From an archaeon (GTDB lineage Archaea > Nanobdellota > Nanobdellia > Pacearchaeales > GW2011-AR1), in assembly GCA_018697035.1 (NCBI GenBank), contig JABHSE010000004.1:259300-323299 (forward strand): a DNA stretch of 64,000 nucleotides, written 5' to 3'. Made by a program: the position numbers and the translations under genes. Below, piece by piece: positions 11,835 to 41,066 of the stretch. Under the pieces are notes generated by a model that was not told the DNA's origin, made no database searches, and was given only the letters and a program-made list of their open reading frames with translations. Within the stretch, counting starts at the first letter, position 1. Each line of letters starts with the position of its first letter.

Positions 11835-12697
11835 ATCAAAATCGCTCCCTTATACTGCCAATCATATCTCAAATGTCCATCCGGAAAGAAAATAACCTGC
11901 CTCATATTATCCCTCTCCGGCTCAATGGTCAAAGCACTTGTCAAGCAAACATTCTGACCCTCCAAATCATAAACGGTCGCACCATGAGCAAGCGCCAACA
12001 GCTGATTACCATTTTCCTTAACAAACAGTTCAATCTCAGAATAATTTTCATCACCAATCATATTCTCCATAGTCCAATCGTAAACACTCTTACACTCAGA
12101 ACCCTGCGGAGCTGCCAACTTCCTAAGACTCAACTGCTCAACCCCCCACCCCTTAACTTTCTTAATCAAAGCCAAAGCCTCATCCTTACTGTCAACAAAA
12201 CCCTTAACCAAAGTGCAACTAATCCTAACGGTATACCCGATATCATGCAACTTAGCAATCAACTTTTCCAAATCAAAATACTCACCCTCTGGAGTAAAAA
12301 TCAACTTATTCTTATCTCTCTCATAATGGACAATAGAAATAGCAATCGTAGTCAATCCAAGATCATACCACTTCTTCAAATACTCATCACAATCATCCCC
12401 CGCGAGAACAATACCATTCGTCTGAATCTCAATAAAAGGAAACTCAAATCTTTCCAACTTATTCAAAAACTCACTAATTTGTTCAGGAAAAAGGGTGGGC
12501 TCACCCTTACCAGTTATAAGAACAGTACTAACATCATTCATTTTAGAAAAATTACAAGCCTTCTCAAAGTTCCTCCAATTAACAACCGGCTCTTCCAAAC
12601 CAATACCCTGCTTCGGAGTCATCCGCGAAACACAATAGGGACATCTAGCGTTACAAGCCGAACTCCCAGCAACAATCGTCAATGTTTGAATCTTCAT
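11831..12697 (-). CDS. radical SAM enzyme, function unknown
   Basis: CNARCPYC (CxxxCxxC) cluster near the N-terminus, then GKGEPTL and IQTNG motifs. Confidence 0.75.
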   Translation of the reverse strand: MKIQTLTIVAGSSACNARCPYCVSRMTPKQGIGLEEPVVNWRNFEKACNFSKMNDVSTVLITGKGEPTLFPEQISEFLNKLERFEFPFIEIQTNGIVLAGDDCDEYLKKWYDLGLTTIAISIVHYERDKNKLIFTPEGEYFDLEKLIAKLHDIGYTVRISCTLVKGFVDSKDEALALIKKVKGWGVEQLSLRKLAAPQGSECKSVYDWTMENMIGDENYSEIELFVKENGNQLLALAHGATVYDLEGQNVCLTSALTIEPERDNMRQVIFFPDGHLRYDWQYKGAILI

Positions 12698-13350
12698 ACC
12701 CTCCCCTCCAAAACATCTTTAGTCGTCACAAAGTTAACCCCAGCCTCTTCCCAATTTTTCAAAACCACTTTAGTCTCCAAAGGCGTACCAACCAAATGCG
12801 GCAAGTCCCTCATAGCATCCATAACCGCATAAACATTTCGCCCTTTCTTGACATTACCCATCACCGCAAAATTATCACAAACATTCAAGGCAACACCATA
12901 GAGCACAACATTCTCAGGATTCAAAATATCAATAGCCTCCGAAGTCAAAGAATTCCCGCTAAAAACATCAAACTCATATTTCTCAATAACAAGATTCCGA
13001 GCCTTCACTATCTTCTCAGCATCGACATTTTGAGCATCCCGAGTCAACCTATAAATATTATCCATAGGACGAGTCGCAGGAATATACTCAGCACCTTTAG
13101 TCCCAGCCATACAATGAGGAAAATATGTATCCACAAGATCCGGGTTCTCAGCATCAATCTCCTTATCCTCCAACCTATGCCAGTCCGCACTATTAACAAC
13201 ATAAATCCCATTCTGCTTGGCATACCCAGTCAACTTAGCTAAATTACCCTCTATCTCTCGAGCATCAGGCACAGGCAAAGTACCCCTAAAACTTTCGTCA
13301 TCTCGCATAAAATCATACTGAGTATCAACATTCCAAAAAATAGTTCTCAT
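12694..13350 (-). CDS. pncA: nicotinamidase (isochorismatase family)
   Basis: N-terminal VDTQYDF, the FPHCMAGTKGAE metal site, and the GVALNVC catalytic Cys. Confidence 0.8.
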   Translation of the reverse strand: MRTIFWNVDTQYDFMRDDESFRGTLPVPDAREIEGNLAKLTGYAKQNGIYVVNSADWHRLEDKEIDAENPDLVDTYFPHCMAGTKGAEYIPATRPMDNIYRLTRDAQNVDAEKIVKARNLVIEKYEFDVFSGNSLTSEAIDILNPENVVLYGVALNVCDNFAVMGNVKKGRNVYAVMDAMRDLPHLVGTPLETKVVLKNWEEAGVNFVTTKDVLEGRV

Positions 13351-14598
13351 CTAATACACGCACTCCTCCATAGCATATTTAGCATCATCATAATCGAATA
13401 TATCCTTAAATCTAGCAACATCTTCAAGACTACCCATAGTCTTAGCCGGATTGTCACTCAACTTAACAGTCCCATACCCATTAGATTCAACAGCCTTCAT
13501 AACAAGCGAAAGAGGCCTCAGTCCCAAGTCATTAGTAAGATTAGTCCCCCAACCAGCGACAACATTTATCCTATTCCCAAACTCATTCTGCAAGTCAGCA
13601 ATCTTCTCCACATTAAGCCCGTCACTCGGAACAAACAACTTAGTCTTCGGATCAATCCTATTTTTTTCATAAAACCCAATCTGCCTTCTAGCAAAAGCCG
13701 CAGGGTCCCCCGAATCTTGCCGAAGCCCCTTCCAATTACGAGCCTGCTCATAGCTCATATCGTCAAGAAAAAAATCAGATCCATAAGTATCAGTCAAAGC
13801 AATAGACAACCCAACCCCATACTCATCAAACCATTCCTCCAAAAACCTATTATGAGAAGCCTTTATGTCAAGATCACTATCATGATAAATCCCAGACATA
13901 ACCATATCCATCTCATGAGCATTCGTACCCATTGGCTCAAGCCCAAGCTTCATCGCCAAATAAACATTCGACGTACCGACAATTTGATTCGGAACTCTCG
14001 CCTTCAACTTTGAAACAACACCCTCTTGCCACTCCTGATCAAACCTCCGCCTAGTCCCAAATTCCATGAACCTCACATTAGGATTCTCCTCCAAAGTCTC
14101 AATCTTCCTTTCAAGATTATTAGCACCTTTTTCCATAATAACCCGAAGCTGATCAGAATCCATGTTCTGCATAAGACCACGATAATAAAGAGTATTAAAA
14201 GTCGCAAGAGCAGGCGTCTCCCAATATATCCCAGCTCCCCAAGGCCCATCAACTTCAAAATCAAATTCGCCATTCTTCACGGTCAAATTATAATCAGGAA
14301 GCACAATATTCTCTAAGAATCCAAGATAGTCATCCTTAAACAATTGTTCGCCATTATTTTTTAATCCCGCCAAATATGTTAACTCGTTACTAGTAGGCCT
14401 CGTATACTGAATCCTATCCAACTCCTGCCTCAACTTCCCTTCATCAACAACCGCCGGAAGACTAACATCCTTCGTCCTATTTTTGAACGCATACTTAACC
14501 GAAACATCATTATACCTATGAAAAGCAAATTGCCCCATGGTCAACTTATACATATCGGTATCAAGAAACGACTCTGTTGTTCGTGTTGTGTTTACCAT
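13351..14598 (-). CDS. pncB: nicotinate phosphoribosyltransferase
   Basis: LDTDMYKLTMGQ motif. The start is set at the ATG at 14598, 21 nt downstream of CTTTATATA. The track ORF adds 7 codons. Confidence 0.85.
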   Translation of the reverse strand: MVNTTRTTESFLDTDMYKLTMGQFAFHRYNDVSVKYAFKNRTKDVSLPAVVDEGKLRQELDRIQYTRPTSNELTYLAGLKNNGEQLFKDDYLGFLENIVLPDYNLTVKNGEFDFEVDGPWGAGIYWETPALATFNTLYYRGLMQNMDSDQLRVIMEKGANNLERKIETLEENPNVRFMEFGTRRRFDQEWQEGVVSKLKARVPNQIVGTSNVYLAMKLGLEPMGTNAHEMDMVMSGIYHDSDLDIKASHNRFLEEWFDEYGVGLSIALTDTYGSDFFLDDMSYEQARNWKGLRQDSGDPAAFARRQIGFYEKNRIDPKTKLFVPSDGLNVEKIADLQNEFGNRINVVAGWGTNLTNDLGLRPLSLVMKAVESNGYGTVKLSDNPAKTMGSLEDVARFKDIFDYDDAKYAMEECVY

Positions 14599-16999: not shown

Positions 17000-17070
17000 T
17001 CCCCCCACCCTGAATCGAACAGGGCCACAGCGGGCTACAACCGCCTGCTCTACCGATGAGCTATAGGGGG
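17000..17070 (-). tRNA. tRNA-Tyr: tRNA-Tyr (anticodon GTA)
   Basis: Hand fold: acceptor CCCCCTA/TGGGGGG with C1-G72, D arm GCTC-ATCGGTA-GAGC, anticodon arm GGCGG-TTGTAGC-CCGCT, T arm CCCTG-TTCGATT-CAGGG. No encoded CCA. TATA box ~25 nt upstream. Confidence 0.85.
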
Positions 17071-17116
17071 ACAAAAACAAAACTCTGAATAGCTTTATAA
17101 ATTTTTAGATAAGATG

Positions 17117-17250
17117 TCGGGGAACCCTGAATCGAACAGGACCACAGAAAGGGTTACCGAACACCTTGCTCGAATTTTTCCCAACGAAGTGATTAGAAAA
17201 ATTTTAGAGTAAAGTGTGAGTACGTTTGCTCTGCCATAAATTATAGGGGG
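17117..17250 (-). pseudogene. tRNA-Tyr-derived chimeric or degenerate element with a duplicated promoter
   Basis: It has the same promoter, the 5' acceptor CCCCCTATA and a near-identical T arm. The anticodon region is replaced by ~80 unrelated nt, and the 3' acceptor TTCCCCG cannot pair with the 5' end. Confidence 0.45.
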
Positions 17251-17291
17251 ACAAATACAAAACCTCTAGAAGCTTTATAAATTTTTAGATA

Positions 17292-17795
17292 TCATTTCCC
17301 AGCCCGCAAAACAATCCGCTTAATCGCCTTCATCCCCTCAGCACTAAACTCCGAAACAACAACCCCGAATAAAACCTCGTCCTCATCCTCCGCATGTTTC
17401 CTCAAAACATCAACAAACACCCTCATATCCTTAACCAAAGCCTCACGAACCCTCGCATCACTACCCGAATTAATAGCATCACCAATCTTCTTGACATGCC
17501 CCCTCAAATCCCTATGCTCAAGAAAAATCGTCTCAATCGGAATCGCAAAACCCTCAGCCTTCATCACCTCAAAAAGCTCCTCCTCCATCTTCTCATGCGC
17601 GGTCCAAAGCTCACCAACCTTCCAAAAAGTGTGCACTAAGTTAGAATAATTAATATTGCCGACCTCGTCCACTTCAGTGGATGCCATCTGGGCAGAAGGC
17701 ACACCCTTGGGTACCTCCTTCATAATAAAATCTAACTCTGACAATTCCATCTCGATAGCCTTATGTTCATCTCTCAATATCTTAACCGGATTCAT
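17292..17795 (-). CDS. hemerythrin-like (HHE cation-binding) domain protein carrying an in-frame repeat insertion
   Basis: RDEHKAIE, HEKMEEELF, LEHRDLRGH and HAEDEDEVLF are hemerythrin-like His/Glu motifs. Confidence 0.65.
   Translation of the reverse strand: MNPVKILRDEHKAIEMELSELDFIMKEVPKGVPSAQMASTEVDEVGNINYSNLVHTFWKVGELWTAHEKMEEELFEVMKAEGFAIPIETIFLEHRDLRGHVKKIGDAINSGSDARVREALVKDMRVFVDVLRKHAEDEDEVLFGVVVSEFSAEGMKAIKRIVLRAGK
17658..17716 (-). repeat. in-frame ~57-nt repeat element, copy H (encodes PKGVPSAQMASTEVDEVG)
   Basis: About 49 of 57 nt match 33093-33149 by hand alignment. Confidence 0.7.
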
Positions 17796-22661: not shown

Positions 22662-22937
22662 ATGTCCATAATGAACGTAGCAATAGTCCTCATAGAGGCC
22701 GCCATCTTGGCATTCCTAACAGAAAGAGGAATAACGTTATTCCAAAATAACATTACTCCTGAAACAAAAAAACTCAGGATAGTCCAACAGCTCTATACTT
22801 TGGACCCATCAGAACCTCGAAAGATGGAGTTAAGGAAATACACCCGCAAACTAAAAGATTACAAATACACCCTTGCCCTATTACTCACAATAGTAATAAT
22901 AACAATAGGGATAACAGTTTACGCTATAACCAGTTAA
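22662..22937 (+). CDS. island 1: small two-TM membrane protein
   Basis: SD TAGGAGG 6 nt before the ATG. Hydrophobic N- and C-terminal segments. Confidence 0.55.
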   Translation: MSIMNVAIVLIEAAILAFLTERGITLFQNNITPETKKLRIVQQLYTLDPSEPRKMELRKYTRKLKDYKYTLALLLTIVIITIGITVYAITS

Positions 22938-23022
22938 AGGAGGTGCCTGACAAAAACACTGTACAACCGTACAAAACCGTACAACAAAACATTAATTTAT
23001 CTTAAAAGAAAAGGAGTACAAC

Positions 23023-23424
23023 ATGAACTTTATCATCGAATTTTTCATCAGCATAGGTTTCATCGCAAGAACAAAACCGATCATGATCGATTCAAAATTG
23101 GCCGGATTAGCAAAACTCCAAAGGGAACTGAGTGAAGCGAATAGAATCAACGCCAGACTTGCTGCAGACAAAATGAGAGAGGAAGAACGAGCTGAGAAAG
23201 CAGCGAAAAAGGCAGCGGAAAAAGAAGCAGCCGAACTCAAAGCCAAAATTGAAGCTCTTGAAAAAGAAAGCAAGGCAAAACAGGATAGTCTTGAGGCAGG
23301 TCGTAACACAGAAAGACGTAATGCCGCCAAGTTCATTACAACTGCAAAAGAAGAAGCGGAAAAGGCAAGTATTATATCTGGGAACCTTGTTGCCATCACT
23401 ACCAAACGCATCGCAACAAAATAA
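23023..23424 (+). CDS. island 1: membrane-anchored coiled-coil protein
   Basis: SD AAGGAG, an N-terminal hydrophobic segment, then an A/E/K-rich helix. Confidence 0.55.
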   Translation: MNFIIEFFISIGFIARTKPIMIDSKLAGLAKLQRELSEANRINARLAADKMREEERAEKAAKKAAEKEAAELKAKIEALEKESKAKQDSLEAGRNTERRNAAKFITTAKEEAEKASIISGNLVAITTKRIATK

Positions 23425-23498
23425 CCCCTGCCGGAGCAGCCATATCTTAGACAAACAAGATCCCTGGCTGCCTTAATCTTAACCGGGAGGTAATTATT

Positions 23499-23654
23499 AT
23501 GTCAACATGCAAAAAAAACTGCCGACGCACACAAAACTGCCCGAAAAAATGCCGGCCAGTTTGCGTAAAGAAATTCAGAACAGAGAAAATCTCTCAGAAA
23601 AAGAAAAGACAAAGCATGAGAGCATTTTTGAAAAAAATTACAACAAACCCATAA
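23499..23654 (+). CDS. island 1: 51-aa Cys-rich basic peptide (not in the ORF track)
   Basis: SD GGGAGG 9 nt upstream. My translation: MSTCKKNCRRTQNCPKKCRPVCVKKF... Confidence 0.35.
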   Translation: MSTCKKNCRRTQNCPKKCRPVCVKKFRTEKISQKKKRQSMRAFLKKITTNP

Positions 23655-23667
23655 GAAAGGAAACATT

Positions 23668-24303
23668 ATGAATTTCGAAAGAAAAATCGAAAGCATATTT
23701 GATCAGGTAGAAGCCATTTGGCCCATGATTAAGGCAATGATCGAATCTGGACAACTCACCGAAGAAGCGGTCACAGAACTTCTTGACGGACCCTATGAAG
23801 AATTGGTTGCCACATACCGGCCCCTGCTTCCCATCCTTCCCATGATCATCTCCAAACTCGTCATGGAATTCCAACCCATGGTCCTTCCCGTAAGAAAACT
23901 CAAATTCCAACTCCAGTCGAATCCGGCATGGAAGAAAATGCAGAGTGACAACTACACTCTTAAAGCTGAAACCCGCAAGGAAATCTTTGCCGCTTATATG
24001 AGTAAGGATTTCACAAGGGAAGAAGCCTGGGCAATGATGATGGAAGATACCACACCCGTCAAACCGGCTCAAGCCTCCAATGGAAATGCATTCCTTAAAG
24101 GATACAAAGCCGCTGCCGAATCTTCCAAAGAAATCTTGGGCGATAAAAAGAAAATGGCTGCCCTCACAGAACTCCTGGATAGCGTTAAAGAAATGATAAA
24201 AGAAGTCAAAAAAACCCAGGAAAAACCGGAAACTCAACCCGTCACTTTCCCAGAACGGGAAGATGATGAGCTTGAAAAAACTGATCCTGATCAGGAAGAA
24301 TAG
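23668..24303 (+). CDS. island 1: hypothetical protein
   Basis: 211-aa ORF with the RBS context GAAAGGAAACATTATG, which is shared with 24392. Confidence 0.55.
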   Translation: MNFERKIESIFDQVEAIWPMIKAMIESGQLTEEAVTELLDGPYEELVATYRPLLPILPMIISKLVMEFQPMVLPVRKLKFQLQSNPAWKKMQSDNYTLKAETRKEIFAAYMSKDFTREEAWAMMMEDTTPVKPAQASNGNAFLKGYKAAAESSKEILGDKKKMAALTELLDSVKEMIKEVKKTQEKPETQPVTFPEREDDELEKTDPDQEE

Positions 24304-24391
24304 GTAAAACTACCAAACTTGGAGCATGGCTAACAATAGCATCGCTCCAAGCCAAAACCATAAACAACAAACAACCAGGAAAGGAAACATT

Positions 24392-24661
24392 ATGAAAATC
24401 ATGATTGTAGGACCAACCGGAACAGTCATCCCAGTATACCTCGAAGAAGGCTGTGAAAATTGCCCAAAACGGGAACTCTGTCTTTTTCAATCTCTTGCAG
24501 AAGAAGCCATGGAACTTATGGAAATCCTGGAACTTATGGTAAAAGAAATCAGGGGAAATTCCTTGAGTAGTAGCACCTCAAAGTGTAACACCTGCTGGAT
24601 AAAAGGCAAATGTCTTATGGAATCTCAGGTAAGAGAGGCCGACAGAAGCACCATCCATTAG
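24392..24661 (+). CDS. island 1: small Cys-containing hypothetical protein
   Basis: The internal ATG with GAAAGGAAACATTATG is preferred over the track start at 24326. CENC..C and CNTC..C motifs. Confidence 0.45.
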   Translation: MKIMIVGPTGTVIPVYLEEGCENCPKRELCLFQSLAEEAMELMEILELMVKEIRGNSLSSSTSKCNTCWIKGKCLMESQVREADRSTIH

Positions 24662-24675
24662 CCCCTGATTCCATC

Positions 24676-24714
24676 CCGCGCGCAGCAACTTCCCAACATT
24701 CCCGCTGCGCGCGG
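24676..24714. terminator. GC-only 11-bp inverted repeat CCGCGCGCAGC-N17-GCTGCGCGCGG
   Basis: Read directly. It begins 15 nt after the stop of 24392-24661. No T-run follows, so a terminator role is uncertain. Confidence 0.4.
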
Positions 24715-24788
24715 ACCAACTAAAAAAATAAAGGAATTTAAATTCCTAGACATAAAAAAATTTCTTAAAACAAAAAGGAGAAAATTTC

Positions 24789-25409
24789 ATGGAATTCAAA
24801 ATCAAGAGCACGAGAAAAGATATCATCTGGGGAGACAAAGTCTTCGAAAGCGATATCACAAGACAAGCCCAGGAACTAATTAACACCAATGGATTCGCAG
24901 GAACATACATCAGGCATCTCAGCACAGGCAGATCAGAAACAGAAAGCATTAACCTTGCCCTCCTCTGTCTAGCAGAAGAAAACCAAAAAATTGTGGGAAC
25001 AAGCCTCAATCTTCTCATGAAGGATGAATTTTGCAAAAGAGTCCTTCCCCGTTTACCTATGGGAAGAATTCTCTACGAAATGCTCAAGGCACCACACATA
25101 TTCAACATATCAAGCGAAATCATCGAGACAGTGGAATTCCCAAAAAAATATATCGGTGTAGATACATGGAGCAACGGGTTATTCGGTTGGAGATACAGAG
25201 AAGAGAAACACGTGGTGAAAACAAATGAGAAGATTACAAAGATCGGCAGCGAAATTTTGATAGAACTCCAACCAGATTTCGTAGCCAACTTAGGATCTAT
25301 AAACATTAGATACGGACCCTTCAATATCGAGAACATAAGAAGAATGGTAGATAATGGACGAACACCTACGCCTTTCTGGAAAGAACTTTTCAAACACATC
25401 TTCTATTAA
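24789..25409 (+). CDS. island 1: hypothetical protein
   Basis: 206-aa ORF with SD AAAGGAG ~9 nt upstream. No family recognised. Confidence 0.55.
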   Translation: MEFKIKSTRKDIIWGDKVFESDITRQAQELINTNGFAGTYIRHLSTGRSETESINLALLCLAEENQKIVGTSLNLLMKDEFCKRVLPRLPMGRILYEMLKAPHIFNISSEIIETVEFPKKYIGVDTWSNGLFGWRYREEKHVVKTNEKITKIGSEILIELQPDFVANLGSINIRYGPFNIENIRRMVDNGRTPTPFWKELFKHIFY

Positions 25410-25602
25410 TAAATAACAAAACAAAAGGAGAAACAAAAAAAGACAAACATCGTGGAATCTGCAATCAACTAAACCAAAGACTGCAGAAAAACAATCCAAC
25501 CCTCACCCATCCACTAGGTGAAATAAAATAAAAAACAAAAGGAAAATATAGTATCATGCGAATACATAGATAAAAAAACATAAATATTCCTGCCGGTCCC
25601 GA

Positions 25603-25638
25603 GATGGCGCACAATGTATCCAATACATATGCGCCATC
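25603..25638 (+). terminator. hairpin GATGGCGCA...TGCGCCATC preceding the T9 run
   Basis: A 9-bp GC-rich stem plus inner pairing, followed by the T-run at 25656-25664. Confidence 0.5.
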
Positions 25639-25655
25639 CAAAACTCTCCAATATC

Positions 25656-25710
25656 TTTTTTTTTGGCCAAACATAGGTATTCCAATATACTATATTACAC
25701 TATATACATC
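25656..25710 (+). repeat. conserved T-run/AT-rich module, copy 1 of 4
   Basis: TTTTTTTTTGGCCAAACATAGGTATTCCAATATACTATATTACACTATATACATC aligns with 35582-35636, 46823-46876 and 47244-47300. Confidence 0.7.
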
Positions 25711-25882
25711 AAACAAAACAATCACTCACTAAAACCTCATTTTCGCCCGCTACCACTCGCCAATCAACCAGCACCCCTCGTCAGTCAAACGCCTTATAAA
25801 ACAAATCATACTCCAAAATATACTTATCATCTCACACTTCTATATAAATAAAAAACAACTCCAAAGACCAAGGAGGTGAAAA

Positions 25883-26026
25883 ATGATAGTTAAACTACAA
25901 GTTTTATACGACGACCTTAACCCAAACGGCGGAAGAGGACGAGACAAGATAATTCGTGAGATTGATAGAGCAATGGACGGCGCAACATGGGAAGCAAGCG
26001 GCGAAGGTTGGATAGCTAGAAGATAG
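25883..26026 (+). CDS. 47-aa hypothetical peptide (not in the ORF track)
   Basis: Strong SD AAGGAGGTG 5 nt upstream. My translation: MIVKLQVLYDDLNPNGGRGRDKIIREIDRAMDGATWEASGEGWIARR. Confidence 0.35.
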   Translation: MIVKLQVLYDDLNPNGGRGRDKIIREIDRAMDGATWEASGEGWIARR

Positions 26027-26115
26027 TTATGGCAAAAAACTCTACTCGATCTATGACTGCCGACAAGGCCATTAGACACGAATACAAACCCAATTTATTT
26101 TTTATTTAATTTATC

Positions 26116-26742
26116 CTAATCCAATGTCTCCAAACTCTTCACAAAAATTTCCTTCTCCAAATCCTCTCTCAACAACTGATAATCACTCCCAATAATCTCA
26201 CCCTTTCTTCCAACAATATCAACATACTCTAATTCAGAAGTAGTCCGAGCCTTAACCAATATCAACAAAAACGAATGCAACTTCCGACTCCCGACCCCTA
26301 ACTTCTGACTCCCAACCTTAGTAACATGCTCCAACGTCACAGAACAAACCTTCTCAAACTCACACCTAACTCCAAACTTCTTCCCAATTCTCTTCACAGC
26401 ATCCTCAAACCCCTCTCCCTGAATCATCCTCCCAGCCGGGAGCGACAACTTACTAAAGAACGGCCTCTTCTTCCTATCAATCAAAAAAACCCTTCCATCC
26501 CTCTCAATCGCAACCAAAACAACCGGCATCACAAAACGCTTATCCGAAACATAGGGAATCTCCTTCTCTCCCTCTTCCGTCAAAATATACTCATCACTAT
26601 CCTTCATTAAAATTCCCTCGCTCACCAGCTTCCCCAAATGATAACTAAGCTTATTCGACCGAACTCCAACCCCCCGCTCTATCTCACTAAACCGCAGCCT
26701 ACTCTCACACAGAAAACATTCCAAAATCTTATCCTTCATCAA
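26116..26742 (-). CDS. ArsR-like wHTH fused to a degenerate Nudix domain (putative ligand-sensing regulator)
   Basis: N-terminal LRFSEIERGVGVRSNKLSYHLGKLVSEGIL is a wHTH. The Nudix-like box PAGRMIQGEGFEDAVKRIGKKFGV lacks the RExxEE glutamates. Confidence 0.55.
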   Translation of the reverse strand: MMKDKILECFLCESRLRFSEIERGVGVRSNKLSYHLGKLVSEGILMKDSDEYILTEEGEKEIPYVSDKRFVMPVVLVAIERDGRVFLIDRKKRPFFSKLSLPAGRMIQGEGFEDAVKRIGKKFGVRCEFEKVCSVTLEHVTKVGSQKLGVGSRKLHSFLLILVKARTTSELEYVDIVGRKGEIIGSDYQLLREDLEKEIFVKSLETLD

Positions 26743-26788
26743 ATTTTTTGAGCAACTCTTTATATATAAGAACTCATATACTCTACTT

Positions 26789-27358
26789 ATGGATATACCA
26801 ATAAGCCAAAAGATTTCTCAAATAAAAGAAACCCACAAAATGATAAAAGAAATAAAAGAATTCCCAAATCTAGAAAAGTCAAAACCTACATCAGACAAAA
26901 CCCACCAAATCGCCGTAACAGGCATAATAAGAAACAAGGAAGGCAAATATCTAATCTGCAAACGCTCCCCAAATGAAAAAGCCTTCCCAAATAAGTGGTG
27001 CGTCCCAGGTGGCAAAATAGAAACAAAAGATTTCATAAATACCCCGAAAGACACACAAGACCACTGGTTTGATATCTTCGAAAAAACTCTAATGAGAGAA
27101 GTCTTAGAAGAAACAAGCCTAACAATAAAAAACATAGGCTACATATCAAACCTAGCATTCATCCACCCAAACGGCTCCTCATCAATGATAGTCTCCCTCC
27201 ACGCCGACCACGATTCCGGAATTGTAAAACTCCAAGAAGAAGAACTAACGGATCACGCCTGGGTAACAATAGAAGAAGCAAAAGAGTTTAATTTGATTGA
27301 AAACATACTAGAACAAATCATTGCAACAAACGACAAGCTCACTCCCCGAAATTCCTAA
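26789..27358 (+). CDS. Nudix hydrolase
   Basis: WCVPGGKIE...MREVLEETSL, a Nudix box with an insertion. Confidence 0.7.
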   Translation: MDIPISQKISQIKETHKMIKEIKEFPNLEKSKPTSDKTHQIAVTGIIRNKEGKYLICKRSPNEKAFPNKWCVPGGKIETKDFINTPKDTQDHWFDIFEKTLMREVLEETSLTIKNIGYISNLAFIHPNGSSSMIVSLHADHDSGIVKLQEEELTDHAWVTIEEAKEFNLIENILEQIIATNDKLTPRNS

Positions 27359-31045: not shown

Positions 31046-32359
31046 TTACCTTCTAGACCGCGTCCGCCCCATAGCAACCCGCCTAGATCCCGAAACCTTC
31101 CCACCCCTCCGACTCCTAGATTCATTCCGCCTTCCACGAGCCCCACTCTTCCGCCTATCCCGACCTCGCCCCCGACCAATACCTTGCCTCCTAGGCCTAG
31201 GCTTAGCCTCGACACCCTCAGCAGTCTTAGCCGCAACCGAATGCCACTTATGCCCAGCATGCTCAACCTTCCGCTTAATCACCCGCTCAATCTGATTCAA
31301 ATAGTTCCTTTCCTCAGCCGAACAAAAAGAATAAGCAGTGCCACTCTCTCCAGCCCTCGCCGTCCGACCAATCCGATGCACATAATTCTCAGGCTCATTC
31401 GGCAAATCATAATTAACAACATGACTAATATTTGAAACATCAATCCCTCGAGCCGCAATATCAGTCGCAACCAAAACCCGAACAGCTCCACACTTAAATT
31501 CTCTCAATGCCTTCTCCCGCTGAAACTGAGATTTATTCCCATGAATCGCAGCAGCCTCGACACCATTCTTATTCAAAATCATCGCAACCTTATTCGCCTT
31601 ATGCTTCATCCCAACAAAAACCAAAACCCTATCCATATTCTGCTGCTTAATCAAATCCAACAACAGCTCCTCCTTATTCTTCCGATCCACAAAAAAAACA
31701 CACTGCTCAATCTTATCAACCGGAGTAGACTGCGGCGTAACCTCAACTCTAACCGGACTCTTCAAAAAATCATCAGCCAGCTCACTAATCTCCTTAGACA
31801 TTGTCGCCGAAAAAAACAAAACCTGCCTCTCCTCGCGGCATGTCTTAACAATCTTCTTAACATCCCGCAAAAACCCCATATCCAACATCCGATCCGCCTC
31901 ATCCAAAACCAAAAACTCCACATTCTTCAAACTAACTTTCCCTTGATTCATCAAATCAATCAATCTACCAGGAGTCGCAATCAAAACATCAACCCCGGCT
32001 CTCAAAGCTCTAATTTGCGGAACAATTCCTACACCACCATAAACAGCCAAATAATTAAAATTCAAAAACTTCCCATAACTCTTAAACTCTTCCACAATCT
32101 GAGCAGCAAGCTCTCGAGTCGGAGCCAAAACCAAAGCCCGAGGACCCTTCCCATTATATTTCTTCTCATTCAACTTCTGCAAAATAGGTACCCCAAACGC
32201 CGCAGTCTTCCCAGTCCCAGTCTGAGCAATGCCAATAACATCTTTCCCACTCAACAACAAAGGTATAGTCTTCTCCTGAATCGGAGTTGGCTCTATATAT
32301 CCCGCTTCTTTCAATGCCTTCAATATAGGCTCAGCAATTCTGAGTGTTTCAAATTCCAT
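31046..32359 (-). CDS. DEAD-box ATP-dependent RNA helicase with an Arg-rich C-terminal tail
   Basis: AQTGTGKT, PTRELA, DEAD, SAT and HRIGRTARAG motifs. The tail is RPRRQGIGRGRGRDRRK... Confidence 0.9.
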   Translation of the reverse strand: MEFETLRIAEPILKALKEAGYIEPTPIQEKTIPLLLSGKDVIGIAQTGTGKTAAFGVPILQKLNEKKYNGKGPRALVLAPTRELAAQIVEEFKSYGKFLNFNYLAVYGGVGIVPQIRALRAGVDVLIATPGRLIDLMNQGKVSLKNVEFLVLDEADRMLDMGFLRDVKKIVKTCREERQVLFFSATMSKEISELADDFLKSPVRVEVTPQSTPVDKIEQCVFFVDRKNKEELLLDLIKQQNMDRVLVFVGMKHKANKVAMILNKNGVEAAAIHGNKSQFQREKALREFKCGAVRVLVATDIAARGIDVSNISHVVNYDLPNEPENYVHRIGRTARAGESGTAYSFCSAEERNYLNQIERVIKRKVEHAGHKWHSVAAKTAEGVEAKPRPRRQGIGRGRGRDRRKSGARGRRNESRSRRGGKVSGSRRVAMGRTRSRR

Positions 32360-32422: not shown

Positions 32423-34210
32423 TTACTTCTTAACCTTCTCAAACAAAAACTCAAAATATTCCCCACCAATCGAGCTCGCCATCCTTTCAACAATCAACTC
32501 CGGAGTAGAACTAGCCAATCTTCCTAAAACAGGATTATGATTCACAATCAAATTAAAATCTTCATCAAGCCCACTAGCCTCAATCCCATCCACACGAGCA
32601 CCCTTAGGCAAGTTTTTCGCAATCTCTGCTCCCAAATGCGTAGCCAAAATAATAAAACAACCTTTCCGAACAAAATATTCAGCAGTCGCACCAATAATCT
32701 TCCCAGCAACACCAGGCTCCGTCACAGCCTCAATCTCATCAGCCAGAATCAGCGTGTTATTCCCAGATTTAATCCCAGACATCTGCGTAAGCAATGTCTC
32801 AAACGCCCCCTTAGAAGTACTGCCTTTAGTCTTAGCAAAATAATAAACCTCATCAAAAACCGGACACTCAAAAATACTCCCAACAACTGGCAATCCCATA
32901 CGAAACAACGAAACATTCTGCAACATATGCTCCAGCAAAGTAGTTTTCCCCCCTGAATTAGCCCCAGTCAAAATCGAACACCGAGCCTCATCGTCCAAAA
33001 CAAAACTAACCGGTTGAGCATCACGCAAAAACAGATTCAACCCATCTTCCAACAATAAGCTAGTACCATCTTTAGGCATAGTCATATCTTTACCGACCTT
33101 GTCCGTATCAGCGGATGCCATCTGGGCAGGAGGTACACCCTTGGGTGCCAAACCATCAACATACTTCGCAACCCCATTACAAAAGTCCTCGACAACTATC
33201 TCCGCCTCCAACCTCTGCAAAATCTTCGGTATACCTCTCAATTTCGAAGCATTCCGCTTAATCCTCTCCGCCACATCACTAAACTCATTAGCACTAGCAA
33301 TCCGAATCTGCGCCTCCAATTCCTTATAATCAACAGAAACAGGAACACCTAAATTAAAAATATGCTCCGGTACACCACTCCTCTCAATAGCCTCCCGAAC
33401 TAAAACCAAAATCTCGTCACTCATCTTCCCCTCACCAAGCATCTTCAGCATAACCTCACCTGAAATCATCATACCCTTAATTCCCTCACCAACCTCCTCA
33501 TTAATATCCTCAAGCGCAGCCTCGACCTCGCCCTCCGTTATAATCTTCCCCTCCTTATTCTCAAGCAATGCAAACGGCTCAATCAACAAATCCAAAACCT
33601 CTCGAAGCTCACAAGAAACATCCGCTCCATTAAGCAAAGCAAAATTCTCCCGCCAACCACTTAAGCTCTCCAAAAATCTCTCAAGATAAACATCCTCGAC
33701 GCTATTCAAAAAAACACTCTGCGGCAACCTTTCAAGCATTCCCCGAAAATCATCGCAATCGACAACCTGCACAACATCATATCGTTCCAACTCTGCAACA
33801 TCATTCTGACTAGTCAATAAAACGACTCCACAACTCAATTTATTTAATCTAACAAACGTAGACTCATCCTCAGTTACAACCACAACATCATATCGCGGCT
33901 TCCAACTAGCCCTCGGCTTACTCAATCTTCCCAACACGTCTCCCAATTCCCAATTCCCGACTCCCAACTTCTTAAAAAATTCTTGCCTCGCATAAACTTC
34001 TTTAAGAGAACTATCAATCCCAAAACAATTCCAGACATTTGAACTCTCCGAAAAAACAAACCCACCAGACAACTTTGCCAAAACCTTCCGATGGACAGCC
34101 TTAGCGTCTTTAGTTCGATAAATACTCCCAACCTTCCCGACACTACTCTTCCCAAGACTAAACGGACTCAAACTGTTCTCCGAAACAAACTTAACAAGCT
34201 CTCTTCTCAT
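32423..34210 (-). CDS. MutS-family ATPase (MutS domain V, MutS2-like, no Smr domain seen) carrying an in-frame repeat insertion
   Basis: TGANSGGKTTLLE Walker A and LILADEIEAVTEP Walker B. The start is moved to the ATG at 34210, 20 nt after the promoter element. The track ORF reads through that promoter. Confidence 0.7.
   Translation of the reverse strand: MRRELVKFVSENSLSPFSLGKSSVGKVGSIYRTKDAKAVHRKVLAKLSGGFVFSESSNVWNCFGIDSSLKEVYARQEFFKKLGVGNWELGDVLGRLSKPRASWKPRYDVVVVTEDESTFVRLNKLSCGVVLLTSQNDVAELERYDVVQVVDCDDFRGMLERLPQSVFLNSVEDVYLERFLESLSGWRENFALLNGADVSCELREVLDLLIEPFALLENKEGKIITEGEVEAALEDINEEVGEGIKGMMISGEVMLKMLGEGKMSDEILVLVREAIERSGVPEHIFNLGVPVSVDYKELEAQIRIASANEFSDVAERIKRNASKLRGIPKILQRLEAEIVVEDFCNGVAKYVDGLAPKGVPPAQMASADTDKVGKDMTMPKDGTSLLLEDGLNLFLRDAQPVSFVLDDEARCSILTGANSGGKTTLLEHMLQNVSLFRMGLPVVGSIFECPVFDEVYYFAKTKGSTSKGAFETLLTQMSGIKSGNNTLILADEIEAVTEPGVAGKIIGATAEYFVRKGCFIILATHLGAEIAKNLPKGARVDGIEASGLDEDFNLIVNHNPVLGRLASSTPELIVERMASSIGGEYFEFLFEKVKK
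33093..33149 (-). repeat. in-frame ~57-nt repeat element, copy M (encodes PKGVPPAQMASADTDKVG)
   Basis: See 17658-17716. Same orientation and reading frame. Confidence 0.7.
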
Positions 34211-34291: not shown

Positions 34292-34449
34292 CCATACAAA
34301 CAACTCCACAACACATACAGAAAACACAATATACATACAGAAATACCTAGAAATCCGTGGAAAACCAGAAATATCCAGAAAAAGAAATAGACTCGTCTCT
34401 GGTAATCCTCAAAATATTTTACAAAACCATTAATCTAAAAGGGGAAATC

Positions 34450-34914
34450 ATGAACTGGCTAAAAAACCAAGCAAAGAAGCTCTTTGGAAAAACAAAACCT
34501 GAAGAAAAAACACCTGAAGAAAAAAACCAACCAGAAAAAGAATTCGAGGAAATTCTAAACACCTTGTTAAAACTAAACATCCTCATCCGAAAAGACCCTC
34601 AACTTGAAGATGAAGTAATGAAAGAAATTGAAGAAACAATCGACAACCTCCAAATTGTAATTCCGAGTATGATGGAAAGGTATCCAGGAGAAACACTGAC
34701 TTACGAACTCAAAAAAATAGGTCAAAACCACCTCTACAAAATCGTCAAAGAATACCTCGACCTCTCCTCAACAAGTCGCAAACAACAAGCCGAGATGTTC
34801 AAAAACAAGATAGCCTCTCTCTACAACGTCGCAAAAAGATCCAAAGATATCATAGAAAACAACGAGGTAGCAGAATTCAAAACCATGGCAAATTTCTTAT
34901 CAACCAAATTTTAA
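34450..34914 (+). CDS. island 2: hypothetical helical protein
   Basis: The internal ATG preceded by AAAGGGG (SD) is preferred over the track start at 34357. Confidence 0.5.
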   Translation: MNWLKNQAKKLFGKTKPEEKTPEEKNQPEKEFEEILNTLLKLNILIRKDPQLEDEVMKEIEETIDNLQIVIPSMMERYPGETLTYELKKIGQNHLYKIVKEYLDLSSTSRKQQAEMFKNKIASLYNVAKRSKDIIENNEVAEFKTMANFLSTKF

Positions 34915-34938
34915 TTCAATCAATCAGGGAGAACAATT

Positions 34939-35100
34939 ATGGAAAACACAGGTGACAAAGACGAGCAACAAAACACACAAGACACAGATAAAAGTGATCA
35001 AGAAAGATGGCGGAGGATAAAACGACCATCAGATTCAGATGAATTTTACTGGTGGAAAGGAGAGCAATATCCAGTTGATCATAAAGGAAGAGTCTGGTAA
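34939..35100 (+). CDS. island 2: 53-aa acidic/Trp-rich peptide (not in the ORF track)
   Basis: SD AGGGAG upstream. My translation: MENTGDKDEQQNTQDTDKSDQERWRRIKRPSDSDEFYWWKGEQYPVDHKGRVW. Confidence 0.35.
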   Translation: MENTGDKDEQQNTQDTDKSDQERWRRIKRPSDSDEFYWWKGEQYPVDHKGRVW

Positions 35101-35162
35101 CAATCCAAAAAACAAACCAACAATCAAAAACAGACTCTCTAAAAATTCAAGGAGGAAGCAAA

Positions 35163-35504
35163 ATGTTTATACCAGATATCATGATAGACATTCTGAATTT
35201 CTATTCAGAATGGACAATAAAAAGCGCAGTATTAAGTCCAATAATTTCCATATTATTATTAATGATAATCATATGGAAATTAAAAATGACAACGGAGAGT
35301 ACTCAAATAATAGGAGCACTCCTACTCTTTACCATATCGCTCCCAATAGGGTTCATGGTAGGATTAATAATAGAAGTATTCTTTTTCCCATATGATCCAC
35401 CAAACGCAGGAGGAATCTTGGGATTGAATATAGCACCCCTATTTTGCCTCCTTGAGATAATGGACGAAAGCACTAGAGAACAACCACTAAAAACCTACTC
35501 ATAA
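35163..35504 (+). CDS. island 2: small three-TM membrane protein
   Basis: SD AAGGAGG 7 nt upstream. Preferred over the overlapping frame 35039-35395. Confidence 0.55.
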   Translation: MFIPDIMIDILNFYSEWTIKSAVLSPIISILLLMIIIWKLKMTTESTQIIGALLLFTISLPIGFMVGLIIEVFFFPYDPPNAGGILGLNIAPLFCLLEIMDESTREQPLKTYS

Positions 35505-35539
35505 ACCATCAAACTTCTTAAAAGATTTAATGCTTAAAA

Positions 35540-35581
35540 GATTGACAAAGCCTCTAGTTCATTAGAACCACTTTGTCAATC
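35540..35581 (+). terminator. hairpin GATTGACAAAG-N20-CTTTGTCAATC followed by T10
   Basis: An 11-bp stem, extendable by AAAA/TTTT, immediately followed by the T-run at 35582-35591. Confidence 0.6.
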
Positions 35582-35636
35582 TTTTTTTTTTCGCCAAAAC
35601 CTATATACTCCAATATGCTACATTAAACAACACACA
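35582..35636 (+). repeat. conserved T-run/AT-rich module, copy 2 of 4
   Basis: TTTTTTTTTTCGCCAAAACCTATATACTCCAATATGCTACATTAAACAACACACA. Confidence 0.7.
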
Positions 35637-35675
35637 TTAAAATCAAAAAAATTTCATAAAATCATATATTCCAAT

Positions 35676-37091
35676 CTATCTCCGAGCAACCCTATTCCGA
35701 GTATTCCTACCACCACCCCGAAACCCATCCTTAGACCCCCGAGCCGGCCTTCTACCATCACTACTCCCTCTATCTCGCCTAACACTTCTCTGCCCACCAG
35801 AACTAGCCCTTCCCCTACTTCCAACATTAGGACTCCGATCATTCCTAGGTCCTCTACTTCTCATTGGTCCCCGACCACCACTACTAGGTCTACCACGTCC
35901 CGAACTCCGACCTCCGAATCTAGAACCTCTTGTATCCTCAAGCATCTCAATCCTAACCCTCTCAAACCGCGGCGTCTCTGTCCTCTTAACCTCAAGTCCC
36001 TCATTCCGCCTCAACACATTCGAAAAATTATCATAATCCCTAGAAGCGACAATATTAACAGCCAACCCACTCTCTCCAGCCCTAGCAGTTCGCCCAATCC
36101 GATGAACATAATCCTTAGCGTCCTTCGGTAAATCATAATTATAAACATGGCTAACTCCCTTAATATCAAGCCCTCGAGCAGCAACATCAGTACAACAAAC
36201 AACACCAGCCATCCCTTCGCTAAACTCCTTCAAAACTCTAATCCGCTTCTTTTGATCCATTCCTCCATGAATCGCTCGAGCACTAACCTTATTCAACCTC
36301 AAATTCTTCTCAACAAAATCCGCATTCCTCCGAGTATTACAAAACACCATCGCAAGGCCATCGTGCTTCTGTTTCAACAAATGCACAAGCAAAGAAAACT
36401 TCTCCCCATCACGAACATCATAATAAATTTGCTTCAACTTAGAAGTATCAACATAATTCTCAACCGCAATCTCAATCGGAGCCTTCATATGCCTATCCGC
36501 AAAATCCGCCAAGTCCCCGCTAATCGTAGCCGAAAAAAGCAAAGTCTGCCTATTTTTAGGACATGCATCAACAATCTTAGAAACATCAAACTTAAATCCC
36601 ATATCCCACATCCGATCTGCCTCATCCAAAACCAAATAATCAACCTTACTCAAATCAACCATACGCTGTTTCAAATGATCTAACAATCTACCAGGCGTAG
36701 CAACAACAATATCCGCGTATACCAACTTCTTCTGCTGATGACTAATCGATACACCACCGTATACCGGCACAACTTCCAAATCTTTATAGTAAGCAAATTC
36801 CCTCAAAGCCTCAGCAACCTGCTCAGCCAACTCACGAGTCGGAGTTAAAATCAAACCCTGAATTCCCTTCCCCTTCTCGACATTCTTAATCATCCCAGAG
36901 CCAAAAGCCAACGTTTTCCCCGAACCAGTGGCAGAACCAGCGACGACATCCTTTCCTTCAAGAATCAACGGTATCGTTTTTTCCTGAATTTCTGAAGGCT
37001 TCGTAAACTTCTTATTCGAAATCACTTTCAAAACATGTTCACAAAGACCCAATTTTTCAAATTGTTCCATTCTAATCTTATAAATTTCCAA
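35676..37091 (-). CDS. DEAD-box ATP-dependent RNA helicase with an RG/S-rich C-terminal tail
   Basis: GSATGSGKT, PTRELA, DEAD, SAT and HRIGRTARAG motifs. The start could instead be the ATG at 37070 (MEQFEKLG). Confidence 0.9.
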   Translation of the reverse strand: MEIYKIRMEQFEKLGLCEHVLKVISNKKFTKPSEIQEKTIPLILEGKDVVAGSATGSGKTLAFGSGMIKNVEKGKGIQGLILTPTRELAEQVAEALREFAYYKDLEVVPVYGGVSISHQQKKLVYADIVVATPGRLLDHLKQRMVDLSKVDYLVLDEADRMWDMGFKFDVSKIVDACPKNRQTLLFSATISGDLADFADRHMKAPIEIAVENYVDTSKLKQIYYDVRDGEKFSLLVHLLKQKHDGLAMVFCNTRRNADFVEKNLRLNKVSARAIHGGMDQKKRIRVLKEFSEGMAGVVCCTDVAARGLDIKGVSHVYNYDLPKDAKDYVHRIGRTARAGESGLAVNIVASRDYDNFSNVLRRNEGLEVKRTETPRFERVRIEMLEDTRGSRFGGRSSGRGRPSSGGRGPMRSRGPRNDRSPNVGSRGRASSGGQRSVRRDRGSSDGRRPARGSKDGFRGGGRNTRNRVARR

Positions 37092-38423: not shown

Positions 38424-40286
38424 ATGTCAACCCATAATCCTTCATCTCAGGAAAAATCAGTCGAACAAAACTTAGCAAAAGATTACGTCCCAAAATCCAA
38501 ACCAGGAAACCTCCCAATATCAAATCAGGTAGACCAGGCCATGAAAAAGAAAATGGAAAAAACCCAAAAGGAAATAGAAAAATTCAAAATAGAATTCCTA
38601 AAGAAATACAAAAATACTCAAAGCGTCGGAATCATTCCACAACAAGCCGCTAAAAAAATAGAAGAAGAATACGAAATCTCCGAAGACGACTCCAAGCGAG
38701 AACTAATCCACATCTTAACAATAGTCCCAGAATCCCAATATAAAAAAATCGGGCAAATAAAACTCGACGCGATAGAAATAGCAAAAAAAATCAACGACAA
38801 ACTCTGGGTGCACATAATGACCCCAATAGATTTTTGGAACCTAGGTCTTGACTCAAAATTCGAAGTAATGGAAGCCCTAGCAATGTCATATCCGCTTCAC
38901 GATAAAGGATTCTTGGGAAGCGTCCGAGTAGCTCAAATCCATAAATCTCTAGTCTTGAAAAAATTCGAAAAATACGTCACATCCTACGTAATCGGTGGCT
39001 CCCTAACAAGAGGTGAAACAATCAAAACTTCCGACATAGACGTCTTCATAGTAATCGACGACACCGACGTAAAACGAATGCCGAGAATGGAACTTAAAGA
39101 AAAACTCCGAGGCATAATCTATTCATATATAGGAGAAGCCGAAGCAATATCAGGAGTTAAGAACAAACTATCTCCACAAATCTACTTAATGACAGAATTC
39201 TGGGAAGCCGTAAAAGACGCACACCCAGTAATGTTCTCCTTCATCCGAGACGGCATCCCACTTTACGACCGAGGCGCATTCCTACCTTGGAAGTCACTTC
39301 TAAGAATGGGAAAAATCAAACCATCCCCCGAGGCAATCGATATGTTCATGAGCTCCGGCGACAAAATCAAAGAAATCATAGACAAAAAACTCTTCGACAT
39401 AGCAACACTAGATCTCTTCTGGGGAATCTCAACACCGACACAAGGACTTCTAATGCTTTACGGCCAAGCACCAGGAAACGTCTACGATACAGTCAAAGCC
39501 TTCAGAGAAACATTCGTAACAAAAGAAAAACTAATTGAGAAAAAATACGCCGACATCCTAGATAATATCGCAATCAAACACTTCAAAGCAATGGAACACG
39601 GCAAAATAAAACCAGGCGACATTAAAGGAGAACAAGTTGACAAACTAAGAAAGGATGCGCTAGATTACATCGCAAGACTAAAAGAACTACGAGAACAAAT
39701 AGAAAAACGAATCCAGGAAAAATCAATCGAACAAATATACAAAGACACATTCGGCATGGTAGGCAGTCTCCTAAAGAAAAAATCCGAAGCAACAATAATA
39801 AGCGAATTCGATAAAAAGATAATCCAAAAAGGAAAATTCCCTCCAAGATTCCTAACAAATCTAAAATTCATAGCAAAAACCAGACGAGACATAGCAAAAA
39901 CTCAATTAGAAAAGAAAAAGACAACAAAGAAAAAAGACAATCTAACATTCAAACAATCTCAAAACGTAGACCAAGCAAGGAAACACGCAGCCGAAATAAC
40001 AACAGCCCTAATCGAACACACACAACGTTGCGAACTAGCATCCCTAGAAAAATCCCGCTTCCAAATCAAATCCCACGACACACAAGCCGAAGTCTTCTTC
40101 CTAAAAAACACATTCCTAGTTCAACCAAATCAAATTCAGAAAATATCAAAAGACAAACTAATCAAATCAACACCAAAAGAATTACAAGAACAAATAACAA
40201 CGCAAGGAAATAAAGAAACAAAAATAGACCACAAATCTCTATCAACCCTACATAAAATCTTCGGCGAATTCGATTTAGTTTATTAA
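38424..40286 (+). CDS. nucleotidyltransferase (pol-beta fold) domain protein with long helical extensions
   Basis: GGSLTRGETIKTSDIDVFIVIDD is a GS..DxD NTase motif. Confidence 0.6.
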   Translation: MSTHNPSSQEKSVEQNLAKDYVPKSKPGNLPISNQVDQAMKKKMEKTQKEIEKFKIEFLKKYKNTQSVGIIPQQAAKKIEEEYEISEDDSKRELIHILTIVPESQYKKIGQIKLDAIEIAKKINDKLWVHIMTPIDFWNLGLDSKFEVMEALAMSYPLHDKGFLGSVRVAQIHKSLVLKKFEKYVTSYVIGGSLTRGETIKTSDIDVFIVIDDTDVKRMPRMELKEKLRGIIYSYIGEAEAISGVKNKLSPQIYLMTEFWEAVKDAHPVMFSFIRDGIPLYDRGAFLPWKSLLRMGKIKPSPEAIDMFMSSGDKIKEIIDKKLFDIATLDLFWGISTPTQGLLMLYGQAPGNVYDTVKAFRETFVTKEKLIEKKYADILDNIAIKHFKAMEHGKIKPGDIKGEQVDKLRKDALDYIARLKELREQIEKRIQEKSIEQIYKDTFGMVGSLLKKKSEATIISEFDKKIIQKGKFPPRFLTNLKFIAKTRRDIAKTQLEKKKTTKKKDNLTFKQSQNVDQARKHAAEITTALIEHTQRCELASLEKSRFQIKSHDTQAEVFFLKNTFLVQPNQIQKISKDKLIKSTPKELQEQITTQGNKETKIDHKSLSTLHKIFGEFDLVY

Positions 40287-40339
40287 TATATATTTTAAAA
40301 CACACATCTTCTTTTAAAACATATAAGCATAAACACATT

Positions 40340-41065: not shown

Positions 41066-41066
41066 T

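Follow-up and report, generated by a model that had tools for sequence, protein, structure and literature searches.

Why does one short intergenic sequence recur four times, always in the same orientation, in 64,000 nt of DNA from an archaeon of the Pacearchaeales? In the stretch that we analysed (the window; contig JABHSE010000004.1, positions 259,300 to 323,299 of the forward strand), an earlier note had pointed out four copies of a module of about 55 nt and had offered three readings of it: an attachment site beside which cassettes of foreign genes insert, a terminator-promoter insulator, or the promoter and 5′ end of a small RNA. To our knowledge, the cis-regulatory DNA of DPANN archaea, which are uncultured or hard to grow, is almost wholly undescribed.

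A repeat search of the window returned the module as a single four-member family of 56-nt direct repeats at 25654-25709, 35582-35637, 46821-46876, and 47244-47299 (copies 1 to 4), with identity to the reference copy ranging over 75-88% and standing at 75% between copies 3 and 4. A 26-nt core pattern, with up to three mismatches allowed, matched four times, all on the + strand and all at these copies, compared to 0.00 matches expected from 100 shuffles, confirming that the four copies and their shared orientation are real; an nhmmer profile built from 24 copies detected no fifth or weaker copy in the window at E ≤ 1. T runs of at least nine on the + strand were also restricted to the four modules in a window-wide scan. 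Each module consists of such a T tract followed by a GC-rich linker and a core, all on the + strand. In copy 1, a T9 tract that is a probable intrinsic terminator (25656-25664) precedes the linker and core GGCCAAACATAGGTATTCCAATATACTATATTACACTATATACAT (25665-25709), which have an orthologue in Pacearchaeota loci L009, L032, and L058. Copy 2 has a T10 tract (35582-35591) and a linker and core (35592-35637) with a related copy in the syntenic locus L034. In copy 3, the T9 tract (46823-46831; eight T in the strain contig L004) is followed by a linker and core (46832-46876) that lie beyond the stop codon of a winged-helix (wHTH) gene and have orthologues in L019, L044, L054, and L099. Copy 4 has a T9 tract (47244-47252) and a linker and core (47253-47299) about 70 nt upstream of the TATA box of a phosphoenolpyruvate (PEP) synthase gene.

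Copies 1-3, as the earlier note had seen, each follow a strong hairpin on the + strand. The copy 1 hairpin (25603-25638; −19.4 kcal/mol, z −5.4) is copy-specific and lies at the end of the + strand operon 22662-25409; that of copy 2 (35540-35581, folding over approximately 35536-35585; −18.9 kcal/mol, z −5.9) follows the + strand genes 34357-35504; and that of copy 3 (46777-46815; −25.3 kcal/mol, z −5.8) closes the + strand gene run 38424-46750. Folding revealed no strong hairpin before copy 4 (−2.0 kcal/mol, z −1.5). Archaeal RNA polymerase terminates at oligo-T, and the T9-T10 tracts of copies 1-3 sit 70-250 nt past same-strand stop codons, behind these hairpins, and thus have the T run of at least five just past a same-strand gene that is taken to mark an intrinsic terminator; copy 4 has the T run with no same-strand gene upstream. 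Scans for bacterial-type terminators and promoters missed all three hairpins and are uninformative for this archaeon. A 60-nt sequence at 46876-46935, related to two 85%-identical stretches at 17656-17715 and 33090-33149, appears to be an insertion between the copy 3 core and an AAACAACAACAAT tail; in relatives, this tail directly follows the core.

The gene surroundings of the copies differ. Copies 1-3 close + strand transcription units at places where a + strand operon meets − strand genes, and copies 2 and 3 lie between convergent genes and face their 3′ ends, with no same-strand gene downstream. The copy 2 core is about 40 nt past the stop codon of a convergent DEAD-box helicase gene (35676-37070, −); an A7 run between the two (35645-35651, T7 on the − strand) is possibly a terminator that shields the core from the other side. 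This helicase gene is the second of two paralogues, and stretches of it are 73-84% identical in nucleotide sequence to the first (31046-32359). Copy 4, by contrast, lies between divergent genes for an 88-residue wHTH protein (46947-47213, −) and PEP synthase (47397-49799, +). Modules occur at 2-3 of the approximately 12 convergent gene junctions in the window, and thus are not a general junction device. To the right of copy 1 lie NUDIX and wHTH-NUDIX genes (26116-27358), and elsewhere in the window an NAD salvage cluster (5932-14598) includes a NUDIX-wHTH regulator of the NrtR type; a homologue of NrtR lies to the right of the module in L038 (3986-4660), and the corresponding junction in the window has no module. 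Between copy 1 and the NUDIX genes, an 80-nt stretch (26034-26114) is 88% identical to 10615-10696 of Pacearchaeota locus L058, with the identity covering synonymous positions of a 26-residue ORF (MAKNSTRSMTADKAIRHEYKPNLFFI) and with no match in Rfam; we read this stretch as a conserved micro-protein or RNA.

The genes to the left of copies 1-3 had been described as Shine-Dalgarno-led ORFan blocks of foreign composition. Comparison with housekeeping genes on the same strand removes the second half of this description: the three + strand blocks have GC contents of 0.36-0.41, GC skews of −0.06 to −0.10, and AT skews of +0.24 to +0.34, and the PEP synthase and L35Ae/L10e genes on that strand have values of 0.40-0.41, −0.07, and +0.36 to +0.39, respectively. 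The contrast is with − strand genes, whose GC skew is about −0.5. The + strand is C-rich and A-rich throughout the window, irrespective of gene orientation, and the skew profile gives an estimated strand-level GC skew of about −0.3. The ORFan "islands" are + strand operons that include ribosomal-protein genes, and the segments between copies hold ribosomal-protein, tRNA, and helicase genes. The Shine-Dalgarno leads themselves are present but do not mark foreign DNA. Host promoters are built very uniformly, with a TTTAWAWA box beginning precisely 29 nt upstream of the ATG for about 26 of the 40 genes, so first genes are expected to give leaderless mRNAs; Shine-Dalgarno-led genes are then simply internal, as is typical of operons here, or leadered. 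We also considered an element integrated at tRNA-Val (38157) and rejected it, as the DNA downstream contains ribosomal-protein genes and is syntenic in relatives. At another tRNA gene, tRNA-Tyr (−), a second copy of the promoter and initial bases occurs 180 nt upstream (17062-17118 and 17242-17298), and no second tRNA was detected at the duplicate.

The search of relatives that the earlier note had proposed showed a lineage-wide family. Exact-pattern scans of genome and metagenome collections (one genome per species, plus JGI metagenomes), followed by nhmmer, yielded approximately 32 distinct copies of the same architecture on DPANN contigs of the Woesearchaeota and Pacearchaeota type from groundwater, an Antarctic lake, marine water, and sediment. 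Copies 1, 3, and 4 have counterparts at orthologous sites of other genera. Upstream of the PEP synthase gene, 11 genomes carry a module, and their PEP synthase proteins share 55-89% identity with that of the window. The window is from a marine DPANN archaeon, and its enzyme is also found on a 546-kb contig and in Saanich Inlet and other marine assemblies. A second module lies past the stop codon of the wHTH gene in L019, L044, L054, and L099. Across the 11 PEP synthase sites, the mean pairwise identity of the 38-nt core was 0.83, compared to 0.55-0.58 for the 60-nt flanks and 0.62 for a shuffled control; DNA identity among the orthologous PEP synthase genes is 65-84%. Conservation of the core at 83% between flanks at the random level indicates purifying selection on the core, and this excess, together with the orthologous positions in different genera, indicates that the copies are old fixtures rather than recent insertions. 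Strong hairpins precede many of the related copies, mostly where a same-strand gene ends just upstream, and all dispersed copies with a T tract lie on the C-rich, A-rich strand. Tandem modules occur in L014 and L016. Scans of viral contigs gave nothing but bare AT-rich matches, and a match in L070, a T4-like phage, was discarded as due to chance. Rfam contains no family for the module, a literature search with the core sequence string gave no match, and a literature search on DPANN promoter motifs returned nothing of relevance, in keeping with the earlier note, which did not recognise in it any described archaeal repeat family. The module is a real and conserved composite intergenic element and, on the evidence of these searches, an undescribed one. 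It is not a marker of foreign gene cassettes: the adjoining blocks share the composition of the host, and the copies are ancient and sit among housekeeping genes.

Across the roughly 32 copies, the module reads T6-13, then SGCCCAAACC, then TATATACTCCAATATACTATATTAMAC, then AYATAYAT. The core after the G+C-rich linker SGCCCAAACC is about 38 nt long and can be written TATATACTCC AATATACTAT ATTAMAC AYATAC. It carries two direct repeats CWATATACTM in 10-bp phase (CTATATACTC and CAATATACTA), a 13-bp palindrome (AATATAcTATATT), and degenerate third and fourth ATAYAC units. The best-conserved stretch, TACTCCAATATACTATATTA, lies between the putative TATA box and the putative start site. A small ORF or peptide spanning the module was ruled out by stop codons in most frames.

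Cores with no T tract are found as well. The mobile element L024 and a virus (L062, the same as L027 and L048) each have one 10 nt upstream of a canonical TATA box, and in L044 and L099 one lies 21-26 nt ahead of the PEP synthase TATA box; from sequence, this is the position of an upstream regulatory site. In L023, a further copy of the core is separated from a tyrosine integrase gene by about 480 nt. The virus, from Antarctic-lake metagenomes, is tailed and encodes a large terminase, a major capsid protein, and an array of about 10 tRNA genes; within its first 1450 nt (L062 1-1450) are T5-hairpin-TATA units in tandem, a tract rich in TA, and 29 nt that match the module core exactly. The exact match may link this virus to module-bearing DPANN hosts.

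A protein that might read the core is encoded next to it. The 88-residue wHTH gene (46947-47213, −) is bracketed by copies 3 and 4 in the window and by two modules in each of L019, L044, L054, and L099, making five genomes with this arrangement. The copy 4 T tract abuts the TATA box of the gene (AATATAAA, 47235-47242, −), which is placed 29 nt before the ATG as read from the sequence and the host promoter geometry; the A run complementary to the T tract is directly upstream of this box. The protein gave weak matches to HTH_69 and TrmB, and its orthologue P0090 also to EarA. The protein carries the labels "archaeon" or "Pacearchaeota" in public databases. All of its 133 homologues are from archaea of the Pacearchaeia and Nanoarchaeia type, and they share an invariant ARDEEF helix and an RRxRWRISN wing. 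A PDB sequence search with the protein gave nothing significant, and its AlphaFold model (pLDDT 60.7) is too poor for use. The protein is equally conserved in sister lineages, where no dispersed module was found within 8-21 kb of its gene. Gene neighbourhood makes this protein a candidate reader of the core.

Is the core simply a promoter? The linker and the TATA-like stretch look like the BRE/TATA region of real window promoters, and the earlier note was right to see a BRE/TATA-like element; the matrix score is what falls short. On a matrix built from 28 leaderless promoters, the modules score 5.1-10.3 bits, and the real promoters have a leave-one-out median of 11.6 bits and a lower quartile of 10.5 bits; 0.1-1% of all window positions score as high as the modules. 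In the four window copies, neither an ATG nor a conserved RNA was found about 29 nt past the start of the TATA-like stretch. The PEP synthase gene and a 47-residue ORF have canonical TATA boxes of their own, that of the leaderless PEP synthase gene (TTTATATA) lying at 47368-47375 on the + strand. The weak promoter score, the conservation where a basal promoter needs none, and the occurrence of T-less cores upstream of canonical TATA boxes led us to take the core for the putative binding site of a sequence-specific factor and not for a plain promoter.

Our preferred reading, to which we give a probability of about 0.4, is that the module is an oligo-T terminator fused to a putative recognition site for a sequence-specific DNA-binding factor, possibly the 88-residue wHTH protein, and has a boundary or regulatory role. 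The T tract (6-13 T), assisted by a hairpin where a same-strand gene precedes it, would stop RNA polymerase arriving from the + strand operon; on a + strand otherwise poor in T, such a terminator is conspicuous. The core would be a protein-binding site laid over a weak BRE/TATA-like scaffold, and once bound would serve as a boundary of transcription or as a site of its regulation, with the position upstream of PEP synthase the most consistent case. At copy 4, the bound core would sit between the divergent wHTH and PEP synthase promoters, an arrangement kept in many genomes, and at copies 1-3 it would lie where a + strand operon runs into − strand genes. With no same-strand gene downstream, copies 2 and 3 fit the term "regulatory site" less well than copy 4 does. 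A plain transcription-factor site also does not predict the bias of the T-tract copies toward the C-rich, A-rich strand.

The nearest competitor, which we judge unlikely, takes the module as an autonomous terminator-promoter in which the core supplies everything that a promoter needs (BRE, TATA, AT-rich proximal element, and start site) and fires rightwards. Its products would be a distal leader for PEP synthase (copy 4), a leader for the 47-residue ORF (copy 1), and antisense RNAs to the helicase (copy 2) and wHTH (copy 3) genes, with the copy 3 transcript ending at the copy 4 T tract. Copies 3 and 4 would then delimit an antisense unit that is exactly the wHTH gene in five genomes, and other details also agree: the linker CCCAAAAC is like the stretch that precedes TATA in window promoters (for example AACCCAAAAC then TTTAAATA at gene 43063), the TATA-like CCTATATA comes next, conservation stops about 30-36 nt past CCTATATA, where host transcripts would start, and the tandem modules of L014 and L016 and the hairpin-TATA array of L062 resemble tandem promoters. 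Apart from scores below the lower quartile of real promoters, this proposal has difficulty with the invariant 20 nt between the TATA box and start site, which a basal promoter would not need, and with L024, L062, L044, and L099, in which a canonical TATA box lies 10-26 nt past the core, roughly at the start site that the core itself would use. The sequence downstream of the modules is also unconserved between copies and matches nothing in Rfam, where tRNAs alone were matched in the window and 20 related loci and nothing was matched in 25400-26200 at the E-value threshold; the + strand there is too G-poor to fold. These results leave the small-RNA reading of the earlier note unsupported. Of its three proposals, the terminator-promoter insulator comes closest, with the T runs and hairpins that close three + strand operons upheld and the promoter score found to be low.

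An attachment or recombination site was another of those proposals, and comparison of relatives does show variable occupancy. At the PEP synthase site, we observed four states: a single module (L007, L020, L026, L031, and L035); two tandem modules with no gene between them (L016); two modules around the wHTH gene (the window, L019, L044, L054, and L099), a gene that in sister lineages sits beside the replication origin; and, in L044, an added PD-(D/E)XK nuclease gene with a duplicated 5′ half of the module. The absence of any such occupied and empty states had been named as a finding that would speak against the earlier idea, and they are present. The L044 nuclease gene (7711-8073) is homologous to a window gene (61435-61833, −) and has similar triple repeats; the window gene lies between 50-nt direct repeats (61407-61456 and 61866-61915), each with three AATCCGTG units in 10-nt phase. 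The core might thus be a crossover or target site, with insertion of a gene or mobile element duplicating the module. In line with such a role, genera share the right flanks of copies 1-3 and have unrelated DNA on the left, and the core occurs in mobile elements (L023 near the integrase gene, the tailed virus L062, and L024). In addition, the strain contig L004 matches the window with 100% identity over the copy 3 T tract and everything to its right (window 46824 onward) and bears no relation to it on the left, so that homology breaks exactly at the tract.

Nonetheless, we consider this role quite unlikely. Among the approximately 65 window ORFs that were scanned or listed in precomputed gene tables (tables of gene context came from simple ORF calls and are noisy for small genes), none matched an integrase, resolvase, or transposase domain. 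The foreign composition also fails, the "islands" having the make-up of same-strand housekeeping genes. The copies are old, keep their positions across genera, and in the case of copies 3 and 4 are 75% alike; among the relatives compared, the PEP synthase site showed no sign of a recent event that had left identical repeats, and no element was seen between one T-tract copy and one T-less copy. The modules lack inverted arms around a 6-8 bp spacer, and other variable spots have no module (for example, a 7.7-kb insert in L058 opposite window position 22400). L004 does not prove recombination at copy 3, because it is a SPAdes contig of low coverage (3.8x), possibly a chimera, and the arrangement of the window recurs in 18 similar strain contigs. 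Its bases 1-800 form a three-part mosaic, in which 147-707 is 99.8% identical to a gene end (L034 1900-2501) beside the L034 module, which is related to copy 2; either recombination at the module or an assembly chimera would produce this mosaic.

A link to replication origins is suggested by sister lineages. We examined ten cdc6-linked origins from such lineages, which are free of modules (L008, L095, L097, and L100-L106). In L008, one of eleven matches from a genome scan, the core has the left ORB of the origin on one side and its TA-rich unwinding region on the other, as a match to a 22-nt pattern with 26 nt in common with the L031 module. In L097 and L102, the exact 13-mer ATATACTATATTA is confined to the origins, compared to 0.001-0.003 occurrences expected per origin; a 17-nt match in the L106 origin is the best in 21 kb; and two tandem related units occupy the same place in the L095 origin. 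Origin cores are always on the C-rich strand, as are all dispersed copies. By tblastn, a wHTH orthologue lies 1-3 kb from the origin in five of six loci (L095, L097, and L100-L102, and not L008), in an origin-side cluster of a PRC-barrel gene, a gene for ~140-160 residues, the wHTH gene, and a gene for ~210-290 residues. One could imagine the core as an origin-associated recognition element, placed at the edge of the unwinding region in cdc6 origins and in origin-like regions of viruses and plasmids, spread along the chromosome of this lineage in one orientation with respect to a chromosome-wide strand asymmetry, shielded by terminators, and read by the wHTH protein, a reading that we consider distinctly improbable.

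That the dispersed cores actually serve replication or segregation, as sites for an origin-associated factor or as directional unwinding or loading elements, seems very unlikely to us. Four of the ten origins examined (L101 and L103-L105) have no core match, TA-rich unwinding regions attract AT-rich profile matches (most with E > 1), and four copies in 22 kb are too dense for origins. The ORB pattern derived from six sister origins (a C-string and a TTTCC...GGAAA dyad) was found neither in the window nor in module-bearing loci, so that no dispersed module has an ORB nearby, and the window contains no cdc6 gene. The sign of the GC skew does not change across any of the ten origins, which is not as expected for bidirectional replication from them. 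If the cores were dispersed origin elements, they would parallel, in archaea, the dispersed DnaA boxes, parS, or polar sites and would tie replication or segregation to transcription-unit boundaries; a true origin link would make them the first dispersed origin-type site family described in archaea. Finally, a selfish miniature mobile repeat like a MITE, devoid of host function, would be multi-copy, intergenic, and tandemly duplicated in places (L014 and L016), but is extremely improbable given sites that are fixed and orthologous across genera, flanks much less conserved than the core, copies that lack both terminal inverted repeats and target duplications, and no transposase found.

The module offers a concrete handle on the cis-regulatory DNA of these archaea, as a 50-nt element that crosses genera, occurs also in DPANN viruses and apparently in some origins, and comes with one small candidate protein. 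It could also help to identify DPANN contigs and possibly to pair viruses with hosts, and could serve as a test case for how strongly strand-biased genomes end transcription on their T-poor strand.

Among known systems, integron attC sites and the att sites of phages and plasmids resemble the module in lying at the 3′ end of variable genes, in the occupied and empty states of one site, and in the core copy near the L023 integrase gene. However, attC conserves structure and not sequence, the module does the opposite, neither an integrase gene nor a cassette array was found in the window, and neighbours of the module include housekeeping genes. Bacterial REP and BIME elements are multi-copy and intergenic, often lie between convergent genes at operon ends, and are thought to bind proteins. 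The module is likewise conserved, multi-copy, intergenic, and often found at convergent operon ends, but REP sequences are conserved palindromes, whereas the hairpins of the module vary by copy and its conserved part is mostly non-palindromic; moreover, REP sequences differ from it and belong to another domain of life. With DnaA boxes, parS/ParB, and archaeal SegB sites, the module shares a core that occurs in origins, mobile elements, and dispersed chromosomal sites and a gene for a small DNA-binding protein that adjoins its presumed sites; its origin link is limited to about half of the origins examined and to sister lineages, no ATPase partner was identified for it, and it is asymmetric and polar. 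Closer at hand is the ordinary punctuation of archaeal transcription by an oligo-T terminator and a BRE/TATA promoter. The module has a T tract at the 3′ ends of + strand operons, an A-rich BRE-like stretch, and an adjacent TATA-like octamer, in the orientation and approximate geometry of host promoters; it departs from such punctuation in that the whole 50-nt block is conserved across genera, best downstream of the TATA-like box, in scoring below real promoters, and in that half of the copies have no gene to drive. EarA reportedly binds TACATA repeats upstream of BRE, and Ptr2 sites are said to be similarly phased short repeats upstream of a promoter. The module differs from these sites in its fusion to a T tract, its strand polarity, a distance to TATA that ranges from 10 to ~90 nt, the many copies at gene 3′ ends, and binding that is putative. 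In common with them, its repeats stand in 10-bp phase upstream of a core promoter (at the PEP synthase, L024, and L062 genes), and a gene for a small winged-helix protein with weak TrmB matches (EarA in orthologue P0090 only) lies next door.
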